A DNA stretch of 35,856 bases from Euglena gracilis (taxonomy: Eukaryota): contig CP154954.1 of assembly GCA_039621445.1 (NCBI GenBank), positions 15,457,805 to 15,493,660 of the forward strand. The letters are read 5' to 3'. The notes beneath the pieces are model-generated. The model worked only from the letters and a program-made list of their open reading frames with translations, made no database searches and was not told the DNA's origin. The translations under genes and the position numbers were made by a program. Of the stretch, positions 1 through 15,235 are shown piece after piece (position 1 is the first letter of the stretch; each line of letters starts with the position of its first letter).

Positions 1-1686
1 TGCACCAATATCTTCCTGCAAACGCTTAATACGCCTGCGGTGTTTGGACATATCGTCCAAAAGAGGGATTTTGTCAGAAAAAGACCGGAAATCTTGCGAA
101 ATTTTTCCAAAACCACCTTCCAATTCCCGTAGTCGCACAGCTAGAGTGTGCACCGCTTCGGAAATAGATTCCAGTTGTGGAGGTGGTTTGGAAGGAGGGG
201 TATTTTGCGGATTCCGCACGTTTTCAGCCATTGGCTGTTCCAAACACACAGAAACTTGCGCAGATAGCGCTAAGAAATCTTTTTGCAAGTTTTTGACTTG
301 CTGATTTACTGTTTCCTCGGTCCGTATCGGACTGTCACAAAATTTTCTCCTGACTTGGTGATTTTCATTACGCATATCTGCAGAAAATCGCTGAAATTCT
401 AAATTTTGTGAACATGGTACCGTATTGCGGTTTTGCAACTCCGCAATTGCGGTTTGGATGTCAACAATATTATTCTGCCACCGTTGGTGGTAAGCATCCT
501 GCCTGCTTGCGATATTCGCGATATGGGCGTAAAAACTTGTTATATCAGCAGAATTTTCACCACACCTACATGATTTTCGCTCCAACTTGGAAAGTCTTTC
601 CTCCAGTTGCTGCACATAAGTGCTGGAAGCGAAACCTTCACCAGGTTGGGTGTGCACATGGTGAAAATTTGCCGATTCACGGCTCAGTTGCATAATGCGC
701 TGTTGCGCTTCCTGGAATGCAGCAGCTAGGGTATCGAACTGCTTCAAGGTAACAAAATCTCCCATATCAGGATTTTTGTGGTCAAAAAGTGCCATTATTG
801 GCTCCACTTTTGTCAACAAATTTTGCAAACTATGTTGCATGTGCAAAAATGCCGCATCATCGCTGGATTGCACCTCACACAAATTTTCGCTCAGTCTCTG
901 AGAGTTTTGTGCGGGTGTGTCCTCCGTTGGAGGACATGCCAGCATGTGGTGAACCACATCAGTGGGTTGTTTGTCAATTGTGCCTGTAGGCACCGTTGCG
1001 ACATCCTGATGCAGGGAAATACAACAAGATGCGTGACTTTTATAATCACACTGGGCGATGGGTTGCTCGATGGAGCCACACGCCGATAGGCGTTGCACAC
1101 ATTGCGCAGCAGGGTTATCGCCTAAATCAAACACCGTTAGGTGTGGAAACTCCTGGGTGGGGAGATGCTCGATGGAGCTTGATACCTTTAGGCGTTGCAC
1201 CCTTTGGGTGTTGGAATGCTCGATAGAGCTGGGAACGGTGGGAGAATGCTCCATAGAGCTGGGGGTTGGACGTAATTGCTCGATAGAGCTGTCCACTGTG
1301 GCGGGATGCTCGATAGAGCGGGACACCGTTAGGTGTGGCACCCATTGGGTGGGGGGTTGCTCGATAGAGCTGTGGGGGGAATGCTCAATAGAGCTGGAAA
1401 ACGGGGTGGGGGAATGCTTGATAGAGCTCGAAAGCGGGGTGGGGGAATGCTCGGTAGAGCTGAAAATTATGGTAAGGGGATGCTCAATAGAGCTGAAAAC
1501 TGGGGTGTGGGGATGCTCAATAGAGCTGGAAACCACTGGGGTGGGGGAATGCTCAATAGAGCTGGGAGTTGCCCCATATAGGGCCACACACCTGGGTTGG
1601 AGCATATACTCCTGCAACAAATCTTCATCAAAGTTTCTCAAAGAACCAATCAAAGCTTTTGATGTGTTGGTGCTTGAGCTCTGCAT
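1..1686 (-). CDS. Long ORF (>=562 aa, runs off left edge), Ser/Pro-rich repeats then coiled-coil; probably a retroelement gag/ORF1-like protein
   Basis: Plus frame 1 has no TTA/CTA/TCA triplet from 1 to 1803, so the minus frame is open; ATG at 1686-1684 (MQSSSTNTSKALIGSLRNFDEDLLQEYML...). It contains SSIEH repeats and heptad-like segments (YVQQLEERLSKLERK, IVDIQTAIAELQNRN, LAVRLRELEGG). Absent from the ORF track because no stop lies in the window. The product call is inference. Confidence 0.6.
   Translation of the reverse strand, partial: MQSSSTNTSKALIGSLRNFDEDLLQEYMLQPRCVALYGATPSSIEHSPTPVVSSSIEHPHTPVFSSIEHPLTIIFSSTEHSPTPLSSSIKHSPTPFSSSIEHSPHSSIEQPPTQWVPHLTVSRSIEHPATVDSSIEQLRPTPSSMEHSPTVPSSIEHSNTQRVQRLKVSSSIEHLPTQEFPHLTVFDLGDNPAAQCVQRLSACGSIEQPIAQCDYKSHASCCISLHQDVATVPTGTIDKQPTDVVHHMLACPPTEDTPAQNSQRLSENLCEVQSSDDAAFLHMQHSLQNLLTKVEPIMALFDHKNPDMGDFVTLKQFDTLAAAFQEAQQRIMQLSRESANFHHVHTQPGEGFASSTYVQQLEERLSKLERKSCRCGENSADITSFYAHIANIASRQDAYHQRWQNNIVDIQTAIAELQNRNTVPCSQNLEFQRFSADMRNENHQVRRKFCDSPIRTEETVNQQVKNLQKDFLALSAQVSVCLEQPMAENVRNPQNTPPSKPPPQLESISEAVHTLAVRLRELEGGFGKISQDFRSFSDKIPLLDDMSKHRRRIKRLQEDIGA
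1063..1563 (-). repeat. Frame-preserving minisatellite (core TGCTCRATAGAGCT) encoding SSIEH repeats
   Basis: About 13 copies with spacings of 24, 30, 33, 36, 51 and 102 nt, all multiples of 3. Confidence 0.85.
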
Positions 1687-2249
1687 ATTTTTATTTATTT
1701 GCAGAAACAAGCACAAGAAAGCCCAAAAAGTAAGCAAAGGAACAAACTCAGAAGGATGTGGCAGCGTATACTGCCCAGAGCCTCCTGAAGCTCGTACCTG
1801 TGCTTAGAAGTTGGCTCCAAACAGCTCGTGGATGCTTTGTGGCCTATAGCCTCAACACCACTCACTGTTTGAAGTCACCTGTTAAGATGGGGGGAAGAAG
1901 GGGCGTAGGAAAGAAACCTAATCTGCTACCAAGTATACGTCCCCTGACTCTATTCCCACTGCCTGTCGGCCTACTTACACCCTCCCGTGGGAACAGAACC
2001 AGGAGAGTAACAAAAAGAAAATCTTTTACTTAACTATTAGTTTTTATTGCCTTTGGGCTTATGCAGAGCACAAGGCAGGTGGAGGAGCCCTATGGGCTAC
2101 GGAAATCGATGCCAAGTTCTTGGCTGTCCTTTCAGGACTTCAAATCAGAAAAATCAAACTTGAAACAGAAGTCTTGAATCAAAGACCAGAATGGAATAAA
2201 ATACCACCTGTGGAGAGGAGAACCAGAATTAGGCTTAGGTATTCCTAAT

Positions 2250-3695
2250 TCAGGCCGTTGGCCATCTGTAGGCATACCACCTAGCATAGTACTGTGTATG
2301 GGGCTCAGAGCTATATCTGGCCGTAGGCTTATACCTACATACACAGTACCATGGCCTTACGGCTGCCTGGTACACACCTGGGGCCAGAGTGCAAGTTGGT
2401 CGTCGGCAATGGGGCCGGGTGCTAGGTCGCAGGGATAGGGGTCCTTCACGTGGGGTTATCCGGTGAATAGGTCCCGGCTCGAGCTGAACGTCACCACAGA
2501 GTGTGACATCTTGGTGTCTGGGCCTCTCGGCTATGACAGCGTCGTTAGGGCTTATATCACCGTGTTGGTCACCTTGTTGGTAGTTTAGTTGCCTTTGTGC
2601 TGTCCGTCGTGCCCTCCGGACATGACGGTCAACTGAAATTACTGATCTTTTCGGACGTAAGAAGGCCATGATGTCCAGGATATCAACGGTGTGTGCATTC
2701 AATGGGGAGAGGTCGGACGAGGAGGGCTCCGTTGGAGGTACTCTGGGGAAAGTGCCTCTCGGCCGGAGAACGTTGGGTAGTGTCATTAGGTGAATAGGGG
2801 GCAGGTAGAGGTGAAAGGCCTCGCCGACGTTGCATACTTCGGACCATAAAACAGTCAGCAACCACATACTGGCATGTACACTCGATGGGGAGTCGTGACG
2901 TGGTGGTCGATGTGGCAATAGCCCTATGAGCACAAACAGAACTCCTCTCAAAACTTCCCAGCATTCGGTGAGCTCATAGACGGTAGTGTTCTCAACCAGG
3001 ACATCGGAAAGGAAGGCGTCTCGGAAACTTTGAAGTTCTGCATCCACCTCTTGAAGGCTCGCCAGCAATCTGTGCCGGATGAAGTTTTCTTGAAGTCCCC
3101 TGGAGACAGGGATTGTTGGTCTTTCCATGGTAGCCAGACGGAAGTAGATGGGTCCTGGTTGTGTTTGGACGTCACCATGGGTGGTGATTCGTTCCCCCCT
3201 TCCAGTCGGCTGGTGTCCTTCTGAAAACTTTTCCCGGGTTTGTTCTGCCGTGTGTCCTCGGCTTGTTATGGAGTGTACTTTTGCTGTCTCAGTAGATGGA
3301 AATACTGTGGCTGAAAAAACAGGGCAGGTTTCCCTGTGGTGCAAGCACCAACCTGCCGAGGCAGTGATGGTTTCAATGTCACACAAAGTGCATTTCAGCC
3401 AGTATGTAGCTTTGGGAAGAAGTGATTGGGAGGAGCCATCGGGGCCTTGCCGCAACGGTAGTTCGGCCTTGATCCGAAAGAAATCAGTCATGTTCATGGC
3501 AACAAGTTGGTCCAATAAATCCATGACTTCACCACAGGGTCCATTAAAAGCCGTCAGCGGGCCTGGATTGGTTTCCACATCACCCATTGTTGTCAGAGAA
3601 TCACCTCGCCCCGTCTTCAGATATGCATCTTCCGGTTTCTTCCCCCCGTGCGGGCTTGCAGGGCAGGGGTGTATGTCGCCGGCTGTTTCTGCCAT
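2250..3695 (-). CDS. 481-aa ORF with multiple 2A-like motifs and a CxxC...HxxxC Zn-finger-like motif; likely part of a retroelement polyprotein
   Basis: TGRGDSLTTMGDVETNPGP (3558-3614), TGRGERITTHGDVQTQPGP (3150-3206), RHQDVTLCGDVQLEPGP (2469-2519), weaker GDIHPCPA and GDISPND; Zn-finger-like KCTLCDIETITASAGWCLHHRETC. Confidence 0.65.
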   Translation of the reverse strand: MAETAGDIHPCPASPHGGKKPEDAYLKTGRGDSLTTMGDVETNPGPLTAFNGPCGEVMDLLDQLVAMNMTDFFRIKAELPLRQGPDGSSQSLLPKATYWLKCTLCDIETITASAGWCLHHRETCPVFSATVFPSTETAKVHSITSRGHTAEQTREKFSEGHQPTGRGERITTHGDVQTQPGPIYFRLATMERPTIPVSRGLQENFIRHRLLASLQEVDAELQSFRDAFLSDVLVENTTVYELTECWEVLRGVLFVLIGLLPHRPPRHDSPSSVHASMWLLTVLWSEVCNVGEAFHLYLPPIHLMTLPNVLRPRGTFPRVPPTEPSSSDLSPLNAHTVDILDIMAFLRPKRSVISVDRHVRRARRTAQRQLNYQQGDQHGDISPNDAVIAERPRHQDVTLCGDVQLEPGPIHRITPREGPLSLRPSTRPHCRRPTCTLAPGVYQAAVRPWYCVCRYKPTARYSSEPHTQYYARWYAYRWPTA

Positions 3696-3761
3696 GCGGA
3701 GGGGCTCCCATTAGGAAATCCTAATAGGATGTTCTTCCATCCTAACTTCCTCATCGGGCAC

Positions 3762-3787
3762 ACTTTCTGAGTGTCTATTTTTTTTCG
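3762..3787 (+). other. Euglena-type spliced-leader exon sequence (relict SL), not followed by an SL-RNA intron
   Basis: ACTTTCTGAGTGTCTATTTTTTTTCG matches the 26-nt Euglena SL exon as I recall it; the next bases are TTCGCATATCATG, not a GT donor. Confidence 0.9.
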
Positions 3788-4147
3788 TTCGCATATCATG
3801 TCGGACAACTGAAAGCCCCTGGTGGGGTTCAAGCTTTCAACTACCTGAAGTTCCAACTTACAACTCAAGTCAGTGAAATATTGAAGCTGCCTTGACAGAA
3901 GCACAAGTTCGACACAGAAGTACAAATCCGAGATACAGTACAGCAAAGACAATTACTGGAGCTGTCTGGAGCAGTGAAGTGGTTCATCTCCTTGCGGCTG
4001 TTGCAGGAGCACACCATCCTCTGCTACACCAGTTGGCTGGAAGCATTACCTCTGTTTCACTTTACTTTGCTGTACCATCTGTGCTGTAACATAGCGACCA
4101 CTGTCCCACCCTGCACTATGGCCCCAGGGCCTTCTGAACACTCCAGA

Positions 4148-4880
4148 GATGTGGCCCCAGGGCCCCAGACTTTTGCCATGATGATCCCAGATTTTGCCCC
4201 AGGGCCCAACAGATTTCAAGCCAAAAAGAACACTTACACAGAAAAGTTTTTCAGAGCTGTGGCCCCAGGGCCCAAGGCCTTTGCCATGATGCTCCCAGAT
4301 TTTGCCCCAGGGCTCAACACATTACAAATGAAAATGGACACTGGCACAGGAAAGTTTTTCAGAGACGTGGCCCCAGGGCCCCAGGCAGAGTTTTCCCCAG
4401 GGCTCAACAGATTTCAAGTCCAAATGGACACTGGCACAGGACAGTTTTTCGGAGATGTGGCCCCAGGGCACAAGACTTTTGCCATGTTGCTCCCAGATTT
4501 TCCCCCAGGGCTCAACACATTTCAAGTCAAAATGGACACTGGCACAGGAAAGTTTCTCAGGGATATGGCCCCAGAGCCCAAGGCTTTTGCCAGGATGCTC
4601 CCAGATTTTGCCCCAGGGCTCAACACATTTCAAGTCAAAACGGACACCTGCACAGGAAAGTTTTTCAGAGATGTGGCTCCAGGACCCCAGGCAGATTTTG
4701 CCCCAGGGCTCAACACATTTCAAATCAAAATGGACACGGGCACAGAAAAGTTTTTCAAAGATGTGGGCTCAGGACCCCCGGCTTTTGCCACGATGCTCCC
4801 AGACTTTGCCCCAGGGCTCAACACATTTCAAGTCAAAATGGACACTTGCGCAGGAAAGGTTTTAGGAGAAGTGGCCCCTC
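4148..4880 (+). repeat. Coding tandem repeat, 108/108/90-nt higher-order array
   Basis: Unit starts at 4148, 4256, 4364, 4454, 4562, 4670, 4760, 4868; encodes DVAPGPKAFAMMLPDFAPGLNTFQVKMDTGTGKFFR in ORF 3974-4954. Confidence 0.9.
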
Positions 4881-4918
4881 GAATAACAACTGGGACAAAC
4901 GTTAAAACACCCTACCAG

Positions 4919-5090
4919 CAAGGTTCCCGGGCTGTTTTTAAACAAGTTGTTTAAAACAGGTTTTTTTCCTATTTGTGGTGTTTTCTTTAAAAAAAGCACC
5001 CCTTTATAAAACAAAAAACAGTTTTTAAACCGTTTTTTATTCATGAAAGTTTTTTTGCTTTGTTTTAAAACAAAAAAAACGGGAACCTTG
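4919..5090. mobile_element. hAT-type MITE (172 bp)
   Basis: TIR CAAGGTTCCCG/CGGGAACCTTG; perfect 8-bp TSD CCTACCAG at 4911-4918 and 5091-5098; removal restores the host reading frame. Confidence 0.9.
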
Positions 5091-5098
5091 CCTACCAG

Positions 5099-5248
5099 GG
5101 AAGACAGGATCTGCTCTCCTGCGGGGACGTCCCCACGCACCCTGGACCGACGCATCACTCCAGAACAGACCACACGCACAGCCCGAACGTCCGGCTGGGG
5201 AGAGGAAGCATCCTCACCTGTGGTGACGTGGAACAAAACCCGGGCCCA
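5099..5248 (+). other. Two tandem 2A/StopGo-like peptides
   Basis: GRQDLLSCGDVPTHPGP (5099-5149) and LGRGSILTCGDVEQNPGP (5195-5248); the latter is 15/18 identical to T2A, EGRGSLLTCGDVEENPGP. Confidence 0.85.
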
Positions 5249-5523
5249 CCGGGAAAGACGCCCCGAGTACGGCCACGGGAAGAAAACAATGCTGAACCGC
5301 AACAGGGCACAGATGATCAAATCACCGCCACATTCACTGATTTAGCACACCCGGCAGGACCACCATTGGGGAGCGCAGATGCTGCAACAGTCACAAATGC
5401 GGCAGGCAATGCCTCCAACTTGCGAAGCTTACCCGACCAACCCTTCGCATGCAACATGAGGGCCCCGAAGTGCTTCAAACGCCGGCTTCAACCATCCGAC
5501 ACCTCCCAGTCTCGACCCAACAA

Positions 5524-5775
5524 GGGGGGTTGGTACACCCCCCCCCCCCCCACCACTCCGAGTGCTTCCCCACGCCATTACCCCCCCTCCCCCCCCCTAG
5601 CCGGACCCCCTCGCCACGCCACCGGCGATTTTCGCGATTTTTTGAACGAAAATTTTGTTGGCGACCATGGTACACCCCCCCCCCCCCCCCTCGTCGCCGC
5701 CCCCCTCGCCACGCCATTTCCCCCCCCTCCCCCCCCCCCTATTCGGACCCCCTCGCCACGGCGTACCAACCCCCC
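5524..5775. mobile_element. MITE, TIR GGGGGGTTGGTAC (copy 1)
   Basis: Inverted ends; highly similar to 7029-7284; no clean TSD at this copy. Confidence 0.85.
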
Positions 5776-6433
5776 ACAGTCTTCTCATGGGCACTACAAA
5801 GATACACGACACAACCAACGGAGGAGTCCCTATTCGGGGTTCTAGCCCTGCCGAAATTAACCCTGAGAGCTGTCAAACTCAAGGGGAAGTTCTCAAGAGA
5901 CATTCTTGAAAGCACAATTCTCCAACGCCTCCACCTCTTCAGACAAGGAGGATGGGCAGAACTGGCAAGTAGCTTGCTAGAGGAATTCAGTTGCGCACAA
6001 CAAACAGGAACAGAGACCCGCTCCCAAAAAAAGATCCGGGAGGACCCCTCTTGTGCAAAAAACTGAAATCTCTTGACCAGCATCCGGCGTCTCGTAGGAG
6101 AAGGGGCGGCGCGAAAAGCCATCCAGGTCCTACAGAGCAAAGGAACGCAAGACGTGCGAGACCCACGGGTACTTCAGAAATTGCAAGACTTACACCCAAA
6201 AGCAGACCGCCCAATTGTCACGCGCCCACCACCTGAAACCCTGAACAAATCACATGACGCAGCAGTTTGGTCAAGCATGGTGAAAGAAAGTGTCCTCAAA
6301 TTCAACCGCACCAACGCGCCAGGACCCTCTGGTCTCCGCATCAGCCACCTCCAAGACTGCCTTCGCCGCCCGGGCAATGTGGCTCTCCTGCAACAAGCCC
6401 TAACGGACTTCTGCATCAAGTGGGACAAAGGTG

Positions 6434-6798
6434 CCATCCCCCCCCCCCCGAGCTATCCCCCCCCCCCCGAGCTATTCCCATTCGGGGTACGGGAATAGCT
6501 CACTGTCATAGCACTTTTTATGAAGAACTTCCTAAGAAAGTGGTCAAAAATCGACGTTTTTGGACCATTTTCAAAAATCACCTTTTGGCAAATGTGCTCA
6601 AAATTGACCATTTTTTTGCCAACATCCAAAAAGTTGCCAAAAATGACCCCTTTTGGGTTGCCCGAGGGTCGGGTATGGGAATAGCTCGGGGGGGGGACCT
6701 AGGTCCCCCCCCCGAGCTGTTCCCCCCCCGTACTGTTCCCATTGGGCCGTAAAGGGTCCCGGGGACGGGAATAGCTCGGGGGGGGGGGGCATGGTGTA
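6434..6798. mobile_element. MITE with GAGCTATTCCC/GGGAATAGCTC subterminal repeats
   Basis: Inverted poly-C/poly-G ends with the repeated motif; interrupts WDKGAI|PQPHSHIW of the RT frame; left end looks damaged, possible TA target. Confidence 0.75.
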
Positions 6799-7028
6799 TC
6801 CCACAACCGCATTCCCACATTTGGTGCTCAGCCTCACTGACAGCACTCACCAAAGAAGGAGGAGGGACACGACCAATTGCCGTCGGGGAAACACTGAGAA
6901 GAGTCGCCGGAAAAACAATCCTGAAGCACCCGCAAGTCCGCAATGAATTGGAATCATTCCTACCAATACAATTGTGACTGGGAGTACCAAATGCTACAGA
7001 GTTCATCGCGCAAGGTGCACAACACATT

Positions 7029-7284
7029 GGGGGGTTGGTACACCCCTCCCCCCCCCCCCTCTCCGAGGGCCTCGCCCCCCCCTTTCCCCCCCCCCCCCCC
7101 CCCCCCTAGCCGGACCCCCTCGCCACGCCACCGGCGATTTTCGCAATTTTTTGAACGAGAATTTTGTTGGAAAACCATGGTACACCCCTCCCCCCCCCCT
7201 GGTTGCCGACCCCCTCGCCACGCCATTTACCCCCCCCTCCCCCCCCCCTATTCGGACCCCCTCGCCACGGCGTACCAACCCCCC
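7029..7284. mobile_element. MITE, TIR GGGGGGTTGGTAC (copy 2)
   Basis: Flanked by duplicated ATT (or CATTG if the TIR has 5 G); excision restores AQHIVQALQ in the RT frame. Confidence 0.9.
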
Positions 7285-9620
7285 ATTGTACAAGCACTTC
7301 AAGCATCCTCCAATTGGGCGCTCTTGCAGGTGGACTTCCGCAAAGCCTTCAACAATTCGCACAGAACCCAAATGTGAATGAACCCCAGTGCGATTAAAAT
7401 TTTAACTCTCACATGGTGGGGTTGAAATTAAAATTTAAGACTCACGAGGGGGGGGCTGAAAATTTAAATTTTCAGTCTCACGGCAGGGGGGGGGATTGAT
7501 ATCCGCAATTTTTCCGCAATTTCCGCAATTTTCCGCAGTTTCCGCAATTTTCCGCAATTTTCCACATTTTTCCCGCAATTTCCGCAATTTTTCCGCAATT
7601 TTCCACCATTTTTTTGAAGAATTTTTTCCCCACCACCGAAGATGGAAGATGCAATGAGTTCAAGCCATTCTTCAAATGGATCAACAGGTGTGCGATTGTG
7701 TTTTGTTGTCCCCCCCAGTTTACCAATTTTTCTCACAGGTGCACCACTGGTCACAGGAGACAAGGGCACAGGGGGGGAGGGGGGGGTCCGAGGGGGGGGG
7801 TTGGAAGCTGTACAGGGGGGGCAGGGGGGGGGTCCCCAGAAAATCACAACTGTACTGCCTACCCCCGAGACAGTTGCGACATTTTTCGTCCAATTGAGGT
7901 TGGCAATGATGGATTTTGCGAAATTCAGATGCATTTTGCAAAACATTTGTGTCTTGTAAAAGAGTGGTAGCCAGTATTTTCACTTTAAACACTTAACGTG
8001 ACCCCCCCTTATTTGTCCCCCCCCCCCTAATTGGCCAGAGCCCAGGTGGCCAATTAGGGGGGGGGGGTTCTCATTTCAAGGGAAAATGCCTTTATTCGGG
8101 TGTTTTTCGGGGGTTCGCGATTATGAAGGACGGGGTCCAGATGGCCAATTGCGGGGGGTTAGGGCAGCGGTGTCGGAACAATTTTTTCCCGCGGGGGGGG
8201 CGAGGAACCGACAAAATTTGGAGCACATCCTTCTTTTCCCCGGCGCGAAGCGCCGAGGAAAATTTTTTTCATGGCGCAACCAAAATGTACTTTTTTCTGT
8301 CCCCTTGGCCCCGAAGGGGCCGAGACGCTAACGCCTTTTTTGAAGACCAATGCTCCAAAAACTTGAGCTGGAAAGCGAAATCATGGGAGGCTAGGCGTGC
8401 CGCTCCGGGGGGTCCGGGCCCCCCCCCCCCCCCGCCCGCCCCCCCCCCCCCCTCAACCCCCCCCCACTGTGCCCAGCATAGCCAAGAAAAACGCATTTTT
8501 TTGAGCAAAAATTGCCCAAAAATGGCCAAAAATGGCCACTTTTTGGAACCAAAAATGGGCCGCGTGCCGCCCTCGGACCCCCCTCCCACCCCTCCGCCCC
8601 CCACGCGGCCGCCCGTGTGGCCGCTCGCCTCAGCCCCCCCCCCACTGTGCCTAGCCTCCATGGGTAGAACCCCTTTGCAAACCTCCCAATTCAACCCCTG
8701 TCGACTTCGCAACCTGGGGGGTGCAGAAGTCATTTTTTTTCACTTTGCGCAAAATCATTTTTTTTTCGTTGACCCGAAGAGTTTCCCCCAAACTCGGCTG
8801 GTCAAGAAAATGGAGGGAGGGGGACATATGGGGATATCAGTTTGTATTCAAACAGCCAAGGTGAAAGTGGTTTGTGGGGTCCCAAAGGAGCACCAAACCC
8901 CCATGAGGCTTTTTTTTAAAAAAAAAATAATTTTTCTTAGGGGGCACTACCCCTGTGCCCCCCCCCCCCCCAGTTACACCCCCGTGACCCCCCCCGTGAC
9001 CTGAGAATCGATCCTTCGCCATTCTTTTTTTTCAGCATTTTTTTAAAAAAAAAACAATGAACTTTCATGTATCCTTTTCCGCCCAATGCGCCTTCACACC
9101 CAAAAATGGGGGGTCACGGGGGAAGTATGACACTTTGCAGGTAGCCAGGAGGCAACATCCATGACGTGGCATCGCGATAAAATTGGTCATTTTTTGAAAA
9201 GGGAATTTTGTTAGGATTTTCTTGACCAACACGTTTTTGGGATGAAGTTTGGGCCATTTTTGACAAAATTCCGTTTTGGGTGGGGAAATGCACCAGTTTT
9301 TGGCACTTCTTTCAGGGGAAAAGTTTTTTTGGCCCCCGCCCCGTGACCCCCCCCCCCATGAGGGCTGAAAATTAAAATTTCAGTCTCATTGGGGGGGGGC
9401 TGAAAATTGAAATTTAAGTCTCACATGGGGGGGGCTGAAAATTCCATGTGGAACAAAACTAGTTAGGTGTGGCACCAAACCGGTTCCAAGAAGTTGCACA
9501 AAACTGGCCAAAAGATGTGGTGCCAAGACTGGCCTCATATGTGGTACCAGACTGGTGCCAAGATGTTGCCCGAAAACTGGCCCCCACATGTGAATCTGAA
9601 TCAAACAGTTGTAAAGCAAA

Positions 9621-10049
9621 CATAGCTGGCACTTCGTTTAAAACGAAGTCAAAAAAAACACGTTTTTTTAAAAAAAAACATGTTTTTTTTAAAAAAAATA
9701 AAAAAAAACGCCATTGAGAGTCCAGGGCAAAAAATTTTTTTTGCCTTTAATTTTAGCTTTTTTTGCCCGTCCTCGGTCAGAGAAAGACACCAAATTTGGG
9801 ATGTTTCAAGTTGAAACATCCCAAAATGGCAGAAAAATGCCCTATTTTGACCATTCTTGTTGAAGATAATCAAAAGTATTGGTTTTCAAGTCATTTGAGC
9901 TAAGATTGGTTCACCCTTGCGATCAAAGGCAAAATTTGGACCATCATTTTCCCCTTTGTTTTTTTTGCCGTTTTTTTTGCCCGTTTTTTTTAATAAAAAA
10001 CAAAAAAAACGTTTTTTTTTAAAAAAAAAACAAAAAAACGCCAGCTATG
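9621..10049. mobile_element. hAT-type MITE
   Basis: TIR CATAGCTGGC/GCCAGCTATG; perfect 8-bp TSD AAAGCAAA at 9613-9620 and 10050-10057. Confidence 0.9.
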
Positions 10050-11786
10050 AAAGCAAATCATAATGACCCAGATGACCATTACGTTGTAAACAAAATGGAC
10101 AAACAAACAAAAAACCTTCGAGTTTCAAGGCACAGCAACCATAGTGGGCCGACCTGTTTTTATTTGACGTTGTTTTCTTTGTTTTTTTTTTAATTCTAAC
10201 AATGTTTTTATTTCAAAAAAATAAAAAAAACGCCCAGTGGGTTTTAATGTAAAAGAATTTGAATGCACATTTTAAAATGATTTTTATCAACTTCTATTTA
10301 ATTTCTGCCAAAAACTTCCTTCCACAAAAATGAAAAAAGTCATAAAATTCCATTTTTGTTGCATTTTTGGATGTTTTTGACCATTTTTGGCAGTTTTTGC
10401 ACTTAGTAGGATTCAAAGGGGGTGCCGTCCGCTTGCCCCCCCCCGTGACCCCCCCCCCGTGACCCGGATTTGAACACCCCCCGATTTTGGGGTCCGCAAA
10501 CGCACGTGCTTCAATCACAACTGCTTTCAGTATTTTTCTTCAAATGTCGCGGCCAAGGGTTTACGGCCCAAAAGTCCACATCCCCCCTTAACCCCCCCCC
10601 CGTGATCCCCCCCGTGACCCCCCCCATGACCCAGCCCACCCCCAAAGTATGGTTTAGGAGTTTTATAACAAGTTTTTTTAATGAAATTTTCCTTTTTTGA
10701 TTTTTTTTTAACTGTTTTTTAAAGAAGAAAAAAACACGTTGTTTTGTTTTTTATTTATTAAAAAAAAAACAGAAAAGATGCCCACTATGACAGCAACAGA
10801 AATCGGAAAACATACACAACGGCCATTCCCAAGAAAAGGGGGGGGGTTGTGGATCGCTGAACGAAATAAGAACCACAACAGATAATTTTCCACCTATTCC
10901 TCACCATTTTTTTCAATGTGTGTGGTGTGTGTGTGTGTGTGTGTGTCTGTCCATTTCTTGATTCACATCCTGACAACCGAAAGCCTCTAGTGGGTAGTGT
11001 TTGAGTTCCGAGCAAATCAAGGTGGTTTATCAATATATGTTATCAACATCAAGTTTCAACTTCAAGTTACAAGTGACAAGTCAACACCAAGAAGCTGAAA
11101 AGTTGTTTTGTTGCTGGAGAAGTTTGGGATGTTGACTTACAGTGAAGATGTTGACTTACATTGAATTAGTGAATTGACGTGAAATGAACTTATTGGAAGA
11201 CTAATCTGGACCTGAGCATGTCCCTACTAAACTGCTCCCCGTCATTGGAGGCCAGGCGCAGTGGGGTGGGGTGAGGGGGGGGGGGCGAGCGGCTGCCGGC
11301 GGCCGCGGGGGGGGGGGGGGGGGGGGGCCGGGGGGGGGCGGGCCGGGGGGGCGGGGCCAATTTCGGGGCCAAATAGGGGGCATTTTTTGCCATTTTTTGG
11401 CCATTTTTTTTTTTTTTTAATGTCTTTTTCTTGGCTATGCTTGGCACAGTGCGGGGGGGGGGGGTCGAGGGGGGGCAAGCGGCAGTGTGGTGCCAAAGTC
11501 ATTTTTACGAATAAAAGCCCCCTATGTCTTTTTCCATACTTTCGAAAACCCGTCTTTTTGATTTTCGACGACGGTTTTAAACTGATTTAAAACGATGTTT
11601 TAAACGACTGATAAAAGACGAGGCCCACACTGGCGAGCCAAAAATCTTGTCCCCTAAAAAAAGAGTGCCAAAAATTGGTGCATTTCTGCAACCAAAAGAG
11701 TTTTTTTTTTGCAATTTTTTCCCCCTTCAAAAATAGCCATTTGGGCCATTTTTTCAAAAATGGCCCAAAATGCATCCCAAAAAATG

Positions 11787-13414
11787 TAACGTGACCCCCC
11801 CCTATTTGTCCCCCCCCCCTAATTGGCCAGAGCCTAGGTGGCCAATTAGGGGCTTTTGGTCAATTTGGGGGGGGGTCAATTAGGGGGGAGGGGTTCAGCC
11901 AATTAGGGGGGGGGGACCTTCTATTGGGGGGAGCATTGTCAATTGGGGGGGGGGTAGTAGCGTGAGGTAGTAATTGGCGGGTGTAGCGTGAAGCAACGGT
12001 GACATAACCAGGGGGGGGAAATGCGTTTCGCATTTTTTTTTTTTTTTTGCGCATTTTTTCAAATTTTCCAAAAATGCGCATTTTTTGCTCATTTTTTCGC
12101 ACTTTTTGGGGTATTTTTTCGTTTTTTTCAGCACATTTTTTGCTTTTTGGCACATTTTTTTTGTGATTTTCCAAAATTTTCGCAATTTTTTGACCATTTT
12201 TTGCATTTTTTTTGCAAAAATTTGAAAATTTTGACTTTTTTTGAAACGTACATTTTCCTCATTATTCTACATAATTTCTTCAAATTTGGTGCCATTTTTG
12301 CATGTTTTTGGGTAATGTTTGTATGTTCGCTATTTTTGCGCATTTTTCCTCGGATTTTGCACATTTTTGCGCATTTTTCCAAAAATGCGCATTTTTTGCG
12401 CATTTTTTGCGCATTTTTACGCATTTTTGCGCATTTTTGCGCATTTTTTCCGGGGCTGGGCGAGCGCATTTCCCCCCCCCTGCATAACGCAATTGATGTC
12501 AGGGTGACGTGACCCCCCCTTCCCCCCCCCCCTTATTGTCCCACCGACCTCTCCCCGGGAGGCCCGAACGGACAGTAAGGCTGAGGGGCTCCCGGATCTG
12601 TCCTGGGGGTGTGGGGGTTGTGGGCTGACTCCATGGTCGGCCCACGGTCGCCAAAGGTCGCCAAAAGGGCGCGATGGGTATTTCCTACTCAGTCTTTTTT
12701 GCCATGTAGCGGCGTAGGCAACTATTCCAGGGCCCTAAAATAACAAAATCCCTTGTGTGTGTAACTCCTTTTGTGTGTAAGTTGCGCTATTTTGCCGTGG
12801 AGCGCATTTTTTGACATCGACCCACCCACGACCTTTGGCGACCATGGCGGCCTTTGGCGACCTTTGGCAACCGTGGGCCGACCCTAGGGTCGGCCACCCC
12901 CTCCCCCGGCAACCCCCAACCCCCCCACCCCCACCCCACCCCCCCAGGTGCCAGCCATATCTACCCTCCCCAGGGGGAGGGGACAATAAGGGGGTACCAA
13001 AGGAATTTCATTGACCAAGCAAAAAAAATCCCCCGTCGGCCGGGGCTCAGGGACAACAAGGGGGGGGACAATAAGGGGGGGGGTACCACCCCCCCCCCCT
13101 TATTATCCCCCCGCCACCTCCCCCGGGGGCCCCAACGGACAATGAGGGGGGGGGGGGGACAATACGGGGGTACAAAGGGAATTCATTTGTCCGGGCCAAA
13201 AAATCCCCTGCCGGCGGGGGCCCGGGACACATAGGGGGGGGGGGGAAACATAGGGGGGGGGGGTGGTATATGGCACCCCCCCCGGGAGCGTTTTGACCCC
13301 CCGGCGACAATTAGGTGGGGGGTGACAATTAGGAGGGGGGTTACTCATCTATTTGTTGCCCCCCCCGGGGGGGCGACTATTAGGGGGGGTGACAAATAGG
13401 GGGGGGGGACGTTA
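11787..13414. mobile_element. TAACGTGACCCC-family TIR element containing nested insertions
   Basis: Left end TAACGTGACCCCCCCCTATTTGTC, right end GACAAATAGGGG...GACGTTA; same family at ~7994 and 17431-17699. Confidence 0.7.
12009..12482. mobile_element. MITE with CAGGGGGGGGAAATGCG / CGCATTTCCCCCCCCCTG ends and internal GCATTTTT repeats
   Basis: Inverted termini; 6-bp TSD CATAAC at 12003-12008 and 12483-12488. Confidence 0.85.
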
Positions 13415-13943
13415 TCTGGAAGAACTCACTGCAGGCAGAACAAGCAACGCCCTTCGAGCTCTGGGATTTTACACATTTTCGAACAGAAAGCATGCAGCCA
13501 CACATATGACAAATGGGACATTGGACGGCGGCACATCGACGCAAAGGACACTCACAAACTTGGCAGTCCCGAGGGAAAGAAGGATCCTCGGATGGTTTCG
13601 GATCAGGTTGAGTTGGGGTCTCAATGACATCAGTTTGGGGCAACAAAATGACATCGGTTTGGGGTTGAAAAAAAATTGCCCGGGGCGTTTGGTCAATTTG
13701 GGGGGGGGTTCAATTAGGGGGGGGGGAGGTGGTATTTAGGGGACTTTTTCCCGTGGCCTCCAAAAAAAAAAGCTTGCCAGAAAAAAATAGAATTTGAATC
13801 AAAAAAATATGAAGGCCCCCCTATTGCAAGTGAGGGCCCCCAACTGCATGTGAACAAAAATAACGCTCATTTGGGTGGAGGAATGTTCTTTCTATTCACT
13901 TCAGGTTGCATGAAGCATTTTGACGTGACATTTGCAGTCGATG

Positions 13944-15235
13944 TTTTAAAAACGTGTTCAGCCCGCCAAATGCCTGCCCTGAAATTCGTGGTCATGAACA
14001 CGTTTTCAATGAGGGCATTTGTGGCAATGACACGTTTTCAGTGAAGGCATCCGGGTTCAGGCACGTTTTCAATAAAGGCCTTGGCAGAACAGACGACGGC
14101 AGAACGGACGGCAGGGAAGGGGCGACAACACCTCGCTGCGGAGGCCAGTGCTGAAACCCACCACCAGGATGTTCGCTCGTTGCGCCTCATAAGCGTTGGA
14201 CCAGTTCACCCCCTTCAGCAACTGGTCCAACTCTTCAGGCTGCAACACGTCAGCTGGAGGCCGAACCGCCGTTGACACTGCCTTCCGCGCGCGTTCGCGC
14301 TCCAGGGAACACAAAAACATCTGGTTGAACTGGGGGAATTGGCGCTCTGAGGAAGGCAACACTACTCCCTCGGTCGTTGTTTTGCGGAATGCCCGAGCGA
14401 CGGCATTCACGTATGTCTGAAAAGAGGTTGCCGAACGATTCCCCGAAACGAACAAAGTTCCCGACTGCTGCTCACGTTGAGCCACACATTGTTCGATGAC
14501 GCTCGCCTCATCGAACAACAGGCTGGGTTCCAGCTCCCATCCCGTCCAGGCAACAAAGAAAGCATCCAGCTCAGGATAAGAGGCTTGCCGATGTTGACAC
14601 AGTTTGGCGAACTCCAAACAGTTGGCAACGGCAGCAAGCTCTGCACCCACGGAGCCGGACTTTTTCTTTGTGTTGCCCTGTGCCAGCAAGGTGCCATGAA
14701 GGGGGTCAACCTTCGGCTTCTTGGCATCTTGCTGGTATACCGCGAGAGCAGCCAGGAACAGTTCCGTCCTAGGGGGAGGTGGCAAAAGACCATTCACAAA
14801 GTTTGCCGTGCGTTTGGCCATATTGGCAGGGCTGCGGGAAAAAAGAAAAAAAGAAAAAAGGGGGGGGTGACACGTTTTCAGTGAGGGCATTTGTGGCAAT
14901 GACACGTTTTCAGTGAAGGCATCTGTGTTCAGGCACGTTTTCAGTGAGGGCATTTGGGGCAATGTCACCTTTTCAGTGAAGGCATCCGGGTTCAGGCACG
15001 TTTTCAGTGAGGGCGCCGTTTTTTGGGTCCGAATTTCACAAATTGGCGTTTTTGACCCCTTGCGTGAATCATGACCACGAATTTCAGGGCAGGCATTTGG
15101 CGGGCTCTGAAAACGTTTTTAAACAAATTGTGGCTGAGCCCAGATTTCAGCCTGAAAACGTGTTCAGGGGCCCCCGAAGGGGGCCCCTGGCTGAACACGT
15201 TTTCAGGCTGAAATCTGGGCTCAGCCACAATTTGT
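13944..15235 (-). mobile_element. Tyrosine-recombinase (Crypton-like) element, internally deleted
   Basis: ORF 14069-14968 ends in ...DVLQPEELDQLL...QRANILVVGFSTGLRSEVL (tyrosine-recombinase box I, TGxRxxE) after a core-binding-like region (SATSFQTYVNAVARAF). CACGTTTTCA repeat arrays flank both sides; ~55-nt inverted repeat 13944-14000 vs 15062-15122; terminal hairpin 15123-15235. Confidence 0.65.
15123..15235. repeat. Near-perfect ~113-nt palindrome with GAA loop
   Basis: ACAAATTGTGGCTGAGCCCAGATTTCAGCCTGAAAACGTGTTCAGGGGCCCCC-GAA-reverse complement, with one 4-nt bulge. Confidence 0.95.

Follow-up and report, generated by a model that had tools for sequence, protein, structure and literature searches.

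T2A-like peptide arrays in decayed copies of a probable R2-like retrotransposon lineage of Euglena gracilis

We analyzed a 35,856-nucleotide (nt) stretch of the Euglena gracilis genome (GenBank assembly GCA_039621445.1, contig CP154954.1, positions 15,457,805 to 15,493,660 of the forward strand; hereafter the window, with positions counted from its first nucleotide), in which a sequence-only reading had reported five or more 2A (StopGo)-like peptides on two divergent open reading frames (ORFs). Our results suggest, with a probability of roughly 75%, that the window contains the 5' parts of two copies, related and both dead, from a Euglena lineage of R2-like non-long terminal repeat (non-LTR) retrotransposons in which T2A-like StopGo peptides punctuate the ORF. 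In itself, the locus is decayed; its interest lies in the family that it revealed.

A six-frame scan of the whole window with the pattern D[VI]xxxPGP returned exactly five matches, all within 2469-5248 and all preceded by Gly. By comparison, 300 first-order Markov shuffles of the window gave a mean of 0.083 matches and a maximum of 1, and the mean fell to 0.01 once the leading Gly was required. Three motifs share one frame of a minus-strand ORF: the canonical GRGDSLTTMGDVETNPGP (3558-3611; core DVETNPGP, 3558-3581), which fits the family consensus described below, the degenerate GRGERITTHGDVQTQPGP (3150-3203; core DVQTQPGP, 3150-3173), with E to Q and N to Q changes, and the degenerate ...TLCGDVQLEPGP (2469-2522; core DVQLEPGP, 2469-2492), with E to Q and N to E changes and loss of the GRG. 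The remaining two form a doublet on the plus strand, in which the degenerate GRQDLLSCGDVPTHPGP (5099-5149; core DVPTHPGP, 5126-5149; E to P, N to H) precedes the canonical T2A-like GRGSILTCGDVEQNPGP (5198-5248; core DVEQNPGP, 5225-5248). The canonical D(V/I)ExNPGP core is present in two of the five motifs (minus, DVETNPGP; plus, DVEQNPGP), leaving one motif still canonical in each ORF. The context GRG-x-x-(L/I)-(L/T)-(T/S)-(C/M/H)-GDV was found before four of the five, and in our own comparison the plus canonical 18-mer was identical to laboratory T2A at 15 of 18 positions; the T2A reference string occurs verbatim in 105 published papers. The motif count, the T2A-like upstream context in most motifs, and the 15/18 identity to T2A put forward by the sequence-only reading were all borne out.

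The plus-strand motifs lie in an ORF at 5069-5845 (plus) and upstream of a non-LTR reverse transcriptase (RT), with the N-terminal part of which they are collinear. A pre-RT and RT N-terminal region occupies 5458-6438 (plus, frame 0) and is 41-43% identical to the relatives P0006, P0007, and P0152 by tblastn. It is followed by RT domains 1-2 (...TRPIAVGETLRR...) at 6798-7028 (plus) and by RT domain 3 (LQVDFRKAFN) at 7285-7374 (plus), where the element ends. Against these pieces (5458-7374), a family hidden Markov model (HMM) scored 228 bits. The stretch from the 2A motifs to the RT consists solely of a helical pre-RT region, with no apurinic/apyrimidinic endonuclease (APE).

The relatives indicate that 2A arrays are a trait of the family. 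Using window positions 5791-6435 as the query, a phmmer search of 1.84 billion representative proteins identified 248 relatives at E<=1e-3, of which 60 reached E<=1e-10, and the top matches were 39-44% identical; the counts that follow cover 150 matches listed of the 248, plus cluster mates. In fifteen of these proteins, 300 residues or more precede the pre-RT region, and 12 of the 15 carry at least one canonical D[VI]ExNPGP, nine of them at least two. With the near-duplicates P0002 and P0154 dropped, the corresponding values are 10/13 and 7/13. The richest example, P0152, contains four canonical motifs in a single ORF, and P0002, from the same cluster, contains three. P0012 has three motifs with the NPGP core, one with D-L rather than D-V/I, as well as a degenerate fourth, while P0021 has two canonical motifs and a degenerate one.

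We then compiled 28 D[VIL]xxxPGP instances from 15 non-redundant relatives. At the positions that the pattern leaves free, Gly precedes the Asp in 28/28, Glu is kept in 26/28, and Asn in 26/28; GRG and LL(S/T)C are found upstream in most of the 28. Every instance is located upstream of the pre-RT start (13,834 residues), with none in the 40,267 residues downstream. The 27 canonical instances yield GRG-x-x-L-L-(S/T)-C-G-D-(V/I)-E-x-N-P-G-P as their consensus, a sequence essentially the same as T2A. Paired motifs recur as well: the plus-strand doublet of the window, spaced by 33 amino acids (aa), aligns with a P0152 pair spaced by 34 aa, and pairs 22-47 aa apart directly before the RT part are also found in P0003, P0006, and P0085. 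His replaces Asn in the upstream doublet member both in the window pair and in P0085.

A second 2A type, W-x-R-D-L-x-x-D-G-D-(V/I)-E-x-N-P-G-P, is present in P0014 and P0117. In these two proteins and in P0152 (first motif), the Trp or RDL...DGD(V/I)E.NPGP type shares an ORF with the T2A-like type. The second type resembles the Trp-containing class B described in part of a preprint (10.64898/2026.09.24.754024).

To place the trait on a phylogeny, a quick IQ-TREE analysis was run on 55 rows of the pre-RT region, 30 of which have unknown N-termini; the tree omits the 2A-positive short matches P0085, P0099, and P0117. All 12 of the 2A-positive rows, the window included, fell into one 23-row group (SH-aLRT 84). 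The trait required 2 changes on the tree versus 8.6 in shuffles, and 0/500 shuffles were as low. The outgroup consisted of 80 RT loci that are more distant (25-40% identity) and come from metagenome contigs. None of the 80 carried a motif on the RT strand, and a single opposite-strand motif was located approximately 9 kb away. The ORF of one outgroup locus, L006, comprises just the pre-RT region, RT, finger, and endonuclease. Because the 2A-positive rows group in the tree and the outgroup loci lack the motif on the RT strand, the sequences indicate that the N-terminal modules, and the 2As that separate them, were added in one specific sub-lineage.

The motifs of the relatives separate a DAM-like methyltransferase, a CCHC finger, and an RT-endonuclease body. 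Among eight long relatives examined with Pfam, six matched RVT_1 and five matched Dam (PF05869; 27-31 bits) N-terminal of a 2A; APE (Exo_endo_phos) was matched in none of the eight, nor in any window frame scanned. A W-x-NPPF motif is present in 9/153 relative proteins among the matches listed. In P0006, P0007, P0012, P0019, P0021, P0085, and P0152, the Dam-like module with W-x-NPPF shares an ORF with the R2-like RT, with a 2A between them. At the C-terminus, the relatives keep a block consisting of CxxC...H...C followed by RH / E / RPAD / D-x-T / K, which we read from its sequence as a putative CCHC finger and PD-(D/E)xK restriction-like endonuclease. This putative finger and endonuclease are found in the aligned full-length proteins, P0006, P0007, P0013, and P0031 among them, and in outgroup locus L006.

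Two comparisons ranked R2 first. A 12-member family profile searched against PDB sequences gave R2 as the best match (9nl3_A, 1.1e-13; 9dou_A, 1.9e-13), with LINE-1 ORF2p at approximately 1e-3; a phmmer search of PDB sequences with P0006 gave no match, and only the family profile succeeded. An AlphaFold2 model of P0013 (predicted local distance difference test, pLDDT, 83.7; predicted template modeling score, pTM, 0.83) was submitted to Foldseek, for which the top seven matches were R2 structures (E 1e-20 to 4e-18, 900-1060 columns), ahead of LINE-1 ORF2p. Since profile and Foldseek rank R2 first and the relatives lack an APE domain, sequence and model together assign the family to R2-like, APE-less non-LTR retrotransposons. 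The R2-like group with a restriction-like endonuclease includes several clades, CRE among them. The narrower placement in the CRE clade, as proposed by the sequence-only reading, is not supported: the relatives are R2-like, and the CRE hallmark of insertion into the spliced-leader (SL) exon, between its nucleotides 11 and 12, was not seen at the locus, where the sole SL of the window is uninterrupted and heads a separate insert. In the profile search, the 2A part also matched 18-residue tails of the unrelated PDB chains 7p2p_B and 8ut1_A, which are probably laboratory 2A tags left over from expression constructs.

The plus-strand copy is dead, having accumulated three miniature inverted-repeat transposable elements (MITEs), two stop codons, and one frameshift, and having lost its 3' half. 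MITE 1 (252 nt, 5524-5775; terminal inverted repeats GGGGGGTTGGTAC / GTACCAACCCCCC) and an in-frame TGA (6064-6066) break the pre-RT region. MITE 2, with the terminal inverted repeats poly-C-GAGCTATTCCC / GGGAATAGCTC-poly-G, spans approximately 6438-6799, its limits being known only to within a few bases, and protein collinearity picks up again after it at 6798. A second stop codon lies in RT domains 1-2 (6975-6977), and MITE 3 (7029-7284), of the same family as MITE 1, has ATT on both flanks. We considered whether excision of a 251-nt MITE 1 would restore a common 2A/RT frame and rejected this, as the family HMM places the pre-RT frame already ahead of MITE 1, which measures 252 nt. No RT past domain 3 is left in the window, and HMMs run on six frames detected no endonuclease anywhere in it and, using an HMM of the relatives' DAM module, no DAM remnant. 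Pfam assigned no family to eight ORF pieces or to the plus read-through frames of 5069-14000 (a YjbR match at E 0.2 is at chance level), and the RT piece had no match in a word-indexed protein search at 'longer' lengths. The terminal inverted repeats of the three MITE-like inserts are rich in G/C homopolymers, and the MITE hairpins gave sub-threshold microRNA-like Rfam matches; at gathering thresholds, Rfam returned nothing on the window, including no SL RNA, 5S rRNA, or ribozyme match.

The minus-strand ORF (2250-3710, minus) is still an open frame, with 486 codons between its stops and its first Met at 3695-3693. If split at its three motifs, it would give pieces of 45 (from Met6), 136, 227, and 73 aa, exactly the sizes stated in the sequence-only reading when the first is counted from Met6. 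The zinc finger that it had assigned to the 136-aa piece is there as well, as a CCHC motif, C-x2-C-x13-H-x4-C, at 3324-3392 (minus). This finger aligns with the same motif in P0001, P0012, P0021, P0117 (twice), and P0152. Moreover, residues 26-187 of the minus ORF, containing a 2A, the CCHC finger, and another 2A, are collinear with residues 301-462 of P0152, and the same 2A-finger-2A block is present in P0002, P0021, and P0085 (27-30% identity, E down to 7e-7 by blastp with P0152). Because the block is collinear and the finger aligns across six proteins, we interpret the minus ORF as the putative N-terminal modules of a related element with the RT part missing, a weaker case than that of the plus ORF. 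A candidate sixth 2A relic, GDIHPCPASP (3651-3680, minus), was detected by tblastn 33 aa upstream of the minus canonical motif, and this stretch pairs with the first member of the P0152 doublet; tentatively, it may be a decayed 2A by sequence, which would make a doublet with that motif.

A word-indexed search of 5.8 billion proteins, performed at 'near' and 'shorter' lengths, returned P0001 as the only close relative of the minus ORF (at near lengths; shorter lengths gave none). The two are 93% identical over residues 4-234 of the minus ORF, beyond which P0001 is frameshifted. The P0001 N-terminus consists of a different 194 aa, which are absent from the window and lack a retroelement domain. 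Pfam assigned no family to the minus ORF, including the read-through frames of 1-4200 (minus), metagenome contigs contained no relative, and the best ESM Atlas score was 0.79, to zinc-finger clusters, which is under the lead threshold. An interpretation of the 227-aa piece as diverged pre-RT sequence was abandoned, given that the pre-RT HMM has no match on the minus ORF.

How such an element would be expressed can be proposed from other 2A systems. At each canonical site, the ribosome would skip the Gly-Pro bond during translation, freeing an upstream module that ends in ...NPG, with the next product beginning with Pro. A single ORF could thereby supply several proteins, which in intact relatives would be an N-terminal module (leader or unknown), an adenine methyltransferase of the DAM-like kind, a CCHC finger, and the RT-endonuclease, with a doublet of 2As 22-47 residues apart often placed directly before the RT part. 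We infer skipping at canonical sites by analogy with tested 2As of L1Tc/Ingi and of metazoan APE-type elements. The serial segmentation envisaged by the sequence-only reading is thus retained in part: arrays of up to four motifs per ORF are a conserved trait of the family, but the window copies are decayed or truncated, and for this reason segmentation at the locus today is improbable and likely absent.

Several observations weigh against the proposal that the window carries two related copies of a StopGo-punctuated element. The relatives are proteins from environmental assemblies, and two rows of the 2A group have 128-142 aa upstream without a motif. The plus copy of the window has its 2A frame one base away from its RT frame; the pre-RT region being off the 2A frame, an indel must therefore lie between approximately 5386 and 5458. 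On the minus strand, the ORF gives no match to the pre-RT HMM and has no RT downstream of it in the window, its one link to a retroelement being the module match at approximately 30% identity. P0001 retains the same degenerate QTQPGP in motif 2, and its motif 1 reads NPGL, in which the last Pro is replaced by Leu and the canonical motif is hence broken; selection on the motifs within the minus family is therefore unsupported by the sequences. Three of the five window motifs (DVQTQPGP, DVQLEPGP, and DVPTHPGP) have lost both Glu and Asn. In the deep mutational scans of P2A and F2A covered in part of a preprint, D12, E14, and N16 tolerate no substitution except E14H in P2A, and its passages on N/H before PGP confine this combination to class B peptides with an upstream Trp (10.64898/2026.09.24.754024). 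As E and N are essential in these scans, the three degenerate motifs would be unlikely to work and are most likely inactive relics by analogy, which argues against the earlier suggestion that degenerate motifs tune product ratios. Lastly, passages of a 2026 preprint report that most retrotransposon 2A-like peptides tested cut protein abundance instead of simply causing skipping (PMC13405545).

This last point leads to an alternative in which the motifs act mainly as translational attenuators that lower the amount of downstream RT protein and do not produce discrete proteins. As given in the same preprint, a 'reduction' class holds 59% of ORF2p-associated and 70% of ORF1p-associated 2A-like peptides tested (PMC13405545), and doublets directly before the RT part would suit dosage control. 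However, the motifs of the relatives stand exactly between recognizable modules (DAM-like, CCHC finger, and RT), as separation predicts, and their consensus is nearly that of T2A, the standard laboratory skipping peptide. We consider attenuation as the main function unlikely, though dosage control is a live alternative and may be an added role. It is also conceivable that the minus ORF is a multi-copy cellular gene or a non-autonomous element with its own 2A use, merely situated beside a retrotransposon. The minus strand shows no RT, DAM, or endonuclease remnant, and the differing 194-aa N-terminus of P0001 fits this idea. Yet the 2A-finger-2A block is collinear with the RT-bearing P0152, P0002, P0021, and P0085, and the existence of at least two copies at 93% identity, one of them frameshifted, is the behavior of a decaying repeat. 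We regard this explanation as quite improbable.

The resemblance to an insect-virus 2A (15/18 to T2A) raises the possibility of remnants of an integrated RNA-virus polyprotein, that is, an endogenous viral element, especially as multiple 2As are described as typical of some picornaviruses (PMC11512398, in part). Against a viral origin, the window motifs run collinear with a non-LTR RT, those of 15 non-redundant relatives are in frame with an RT, the minus ORF has no relative in IMG/VR viral contigs, and Pfam detected no viral domain; such an origin appears very improbable. The remaining concern is that the motifs are chance or low-complexity matches in a genome rich in Pro and Gly. The window does abound in poly-C/poly-G tracts and PGP-bearing repeats, such as DVAPGP in 4144-4950. 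Nevertheless, five motifs far exceed the shuffle counts, a context of approximately 18 residues is common to them, and the peptide is kept in relatives at approximately 40% overall identity. The shuffle counts and the family consensus refute chance, and we assign it practically no weight.

Between the two ORFs lies a separate insert (3762-5079, plus) that begins with an exact copy of the 26-nt E. gracilis SL (3762-3787, plus). Tandem repeats occupy part of it (4144-4950), and an A-run (5067-5079) forms its end. The SL sequence was taken from PMC6242988 and also occurs within a primer of PMC5654406, as given in the relevant parts of both papers. This SL copy is the sole one in the window, none being expected by chance, and it substantiates the label 'euglenid' that had been applied from sequence alone. 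The sequence following the SL at 3787 is not an intron-like GT, and a 7-nt direct repeat, identical at 6/7 positions, borders the insert on its two sides (CGGGCAC, 3755-3761; CGGGAAC, 5080-5086). We think it likely that the insert arose when a trans-spliced, polyadenylated RNA was retro-copied into the space between the ORFs; alternatively, it could be the 5' leader of the plus element itself. If retro-copied, it would provide direct genomic evidence of retro-copied trans-spliced RNAs in Euglena, comparable to the SL-tagged retrogenes described for dinoflagellates in a section of PMC12014239. The repeats at 4144-4950 (plus) have units of 90/108 nt and a 306-nt super-unit, with 85-90% matches, and they hold an open 352-codon frame (ORF 3896-4954, plus) with the recurring peptide ...KFFRDVAPGPQ... 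and no Pfam family.

Removing the insert brings the ORFs close together. When 3762-5086 is excised, the ATG at 3729-3731, which together with the 10 codons after it occupies 3729-3761 (plus), comes to share the frame of the plus 2A ORF and lies 11 codons ahead of the junction; counted from this ATG, the plus canonical motif ends approximately 63 aa in. The divergent ATGs, at 3695-3693 (minus) and 3729-3731 (plus), are separated by a 33-nt spacer containing a 7+7 palindrome, ATTAGGAAATCCTAAT (ATTAGGA-AA-TCCTAAT), at 3710-3725. We propose that the ORFs were originally arranged head to head, with 33 nt between their ATGs, and that an SL-capped RNA later parted them. Twin priming, snap-back, and inverted duplication were considered as origins and are unsupported, as no DNA-level inverted repeat joins the two arms and the arms are offset. 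The simplest reading of the head-to-head pair is two independent insertions.

Two further open frames of the window were noted. One, of 601 codons (1-1803, minus), runs off the window start and has no Pfam family. Its SSIEH(S/P)PTP-type repeats (tandem units of 30/33 nt, 1214-1565) give way to a stretch that is coiled-coil-like by eye; its reading frame differs from that of the minus 2A ORF. The other, of 349 codons (14069-15118, minus), likewise has no Pfam family and includes a PELDAFF stretch weakly like the start of the DAM module, for which the HMM score is negative.

Taken together, these findings raise the prospect that a probably euglenid, R2-like, APE-less lineage gained a T2A-like peptide once and now expresses a multi-protein toolkit via two to four or more StopGo sites, a scenario to which we would give even odds. 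Passages of PMC3708506 report 2A in non-LTR elements for APE-type clades, and those of PMC13405545 add Dualen/RandI and others. Our literature search found no paper linking Euglena with NPGP. Euglenids are unmentioned in the main text of two large 2A surveys, the supplementary tables of which might list them, and SLACS/CZAR were found together with 2A-like only in one review, where the 2A belongs to L1Tc. If correct, the scenario would describe a retrotransposon that is 'polycistronic by skipping' and the first use of 2A outside APE-type elements. Its four sites per ORF would exceed the maximum of three 2A instances per eukaryotic gene stated in the part of a survey that treats them (PMC12338488). 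In a cellular mobile element, StopGo could then stand in for a multi-ORF organization, as happens in picornavirus polyproteins, and the family would offer a natural set of approximately 30 T2A-like variants, including N-to-H, N-to-Q, and N-to-E, for deriving the sequence rules of skipping. The Euglena elements that combine DAM with a LINE-like RT may also prove to be genuine single-ORF elements and not chimeras or artefacts.

Among known systems, the closest in the use of 2A are L1Tc/Ingi and metazoan APE-type non-LTR elements, in which the 2A is likewise N-terminal (Heras 2006; Odon 2013, PMC3708506, in part); active 2As sit in the non-LTR ORF2's N-terminal region according to a passage of the latter. 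The hosts of L1Tc/Ingi and of the elements described here are both euglenozoan. L1Tc/Ingi and APE-type elements encode an APE endonuclease and usually a single 2A, whereas the relatives identified here have no APE, an R2-like endonuclease, and arrays of two to four motifs that set additional modules apart. The APE-type arrangement of an N-terminal APE endonuclease downstream of the 2A, as in Ingi/L1Tc, CR1, L2, Rex1, and Crack, was not found.

R2 itself targets 28S rDNA. To our knowledge, no 2A peptide or DAM module is known in R2. R2 (9nl3, 9dou, 8gh6) is the best match by profile and fold, including both the RT and the C-terminal endonuclease, and has a single ORF, as does the family; however, identity is approximately 15%, and the matched R2 chains have no match to the 2A part of the profile. 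CRE-clade elements (CRE1/2, SLACS, CZAR) likewise have euglenozoan hosts, and in the window an SL sequence adjoins the element. A passage of PMC3708506 describes them as having a single ORF with RT and a restriction-like endonuclease, and one of PMC5814959 places the insertion site of CZAR and SLACS between nucleotides 11 and 12 of the SL exon. Whereas CZAR and SLACS split the SL exon, the SL here is intact and heads a separate A-tailed insert.

The DAM-carrying retrotransposons of a recent preprint (10.64898/2026.05.21.726589) share with our relatives the Dam-like PF05869 domain with W-x-NPPF; unlike those elements, the window itself has no DAM remnant. In part, the preprint describes E. gracilis DAM elements with RTs that branch with LINE/L1-like RTs, and classes DAM elements as LTR/DIRS-like or as possible chimeras or artefacts; the terms 'skipping' and 'self-cleaving' are absent from its text. 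Finally, T2A of Thosea asigna virus and the picornaviruses with multiple 2A(NPGP) sites offer nearly the same 18-mer (15/18) and several copies per polyprotein. Those are RNA viruses, whereas here the peptides punctuate a cellular retroelement, the modules of which are DAM-like, CCHC finger, and RT.

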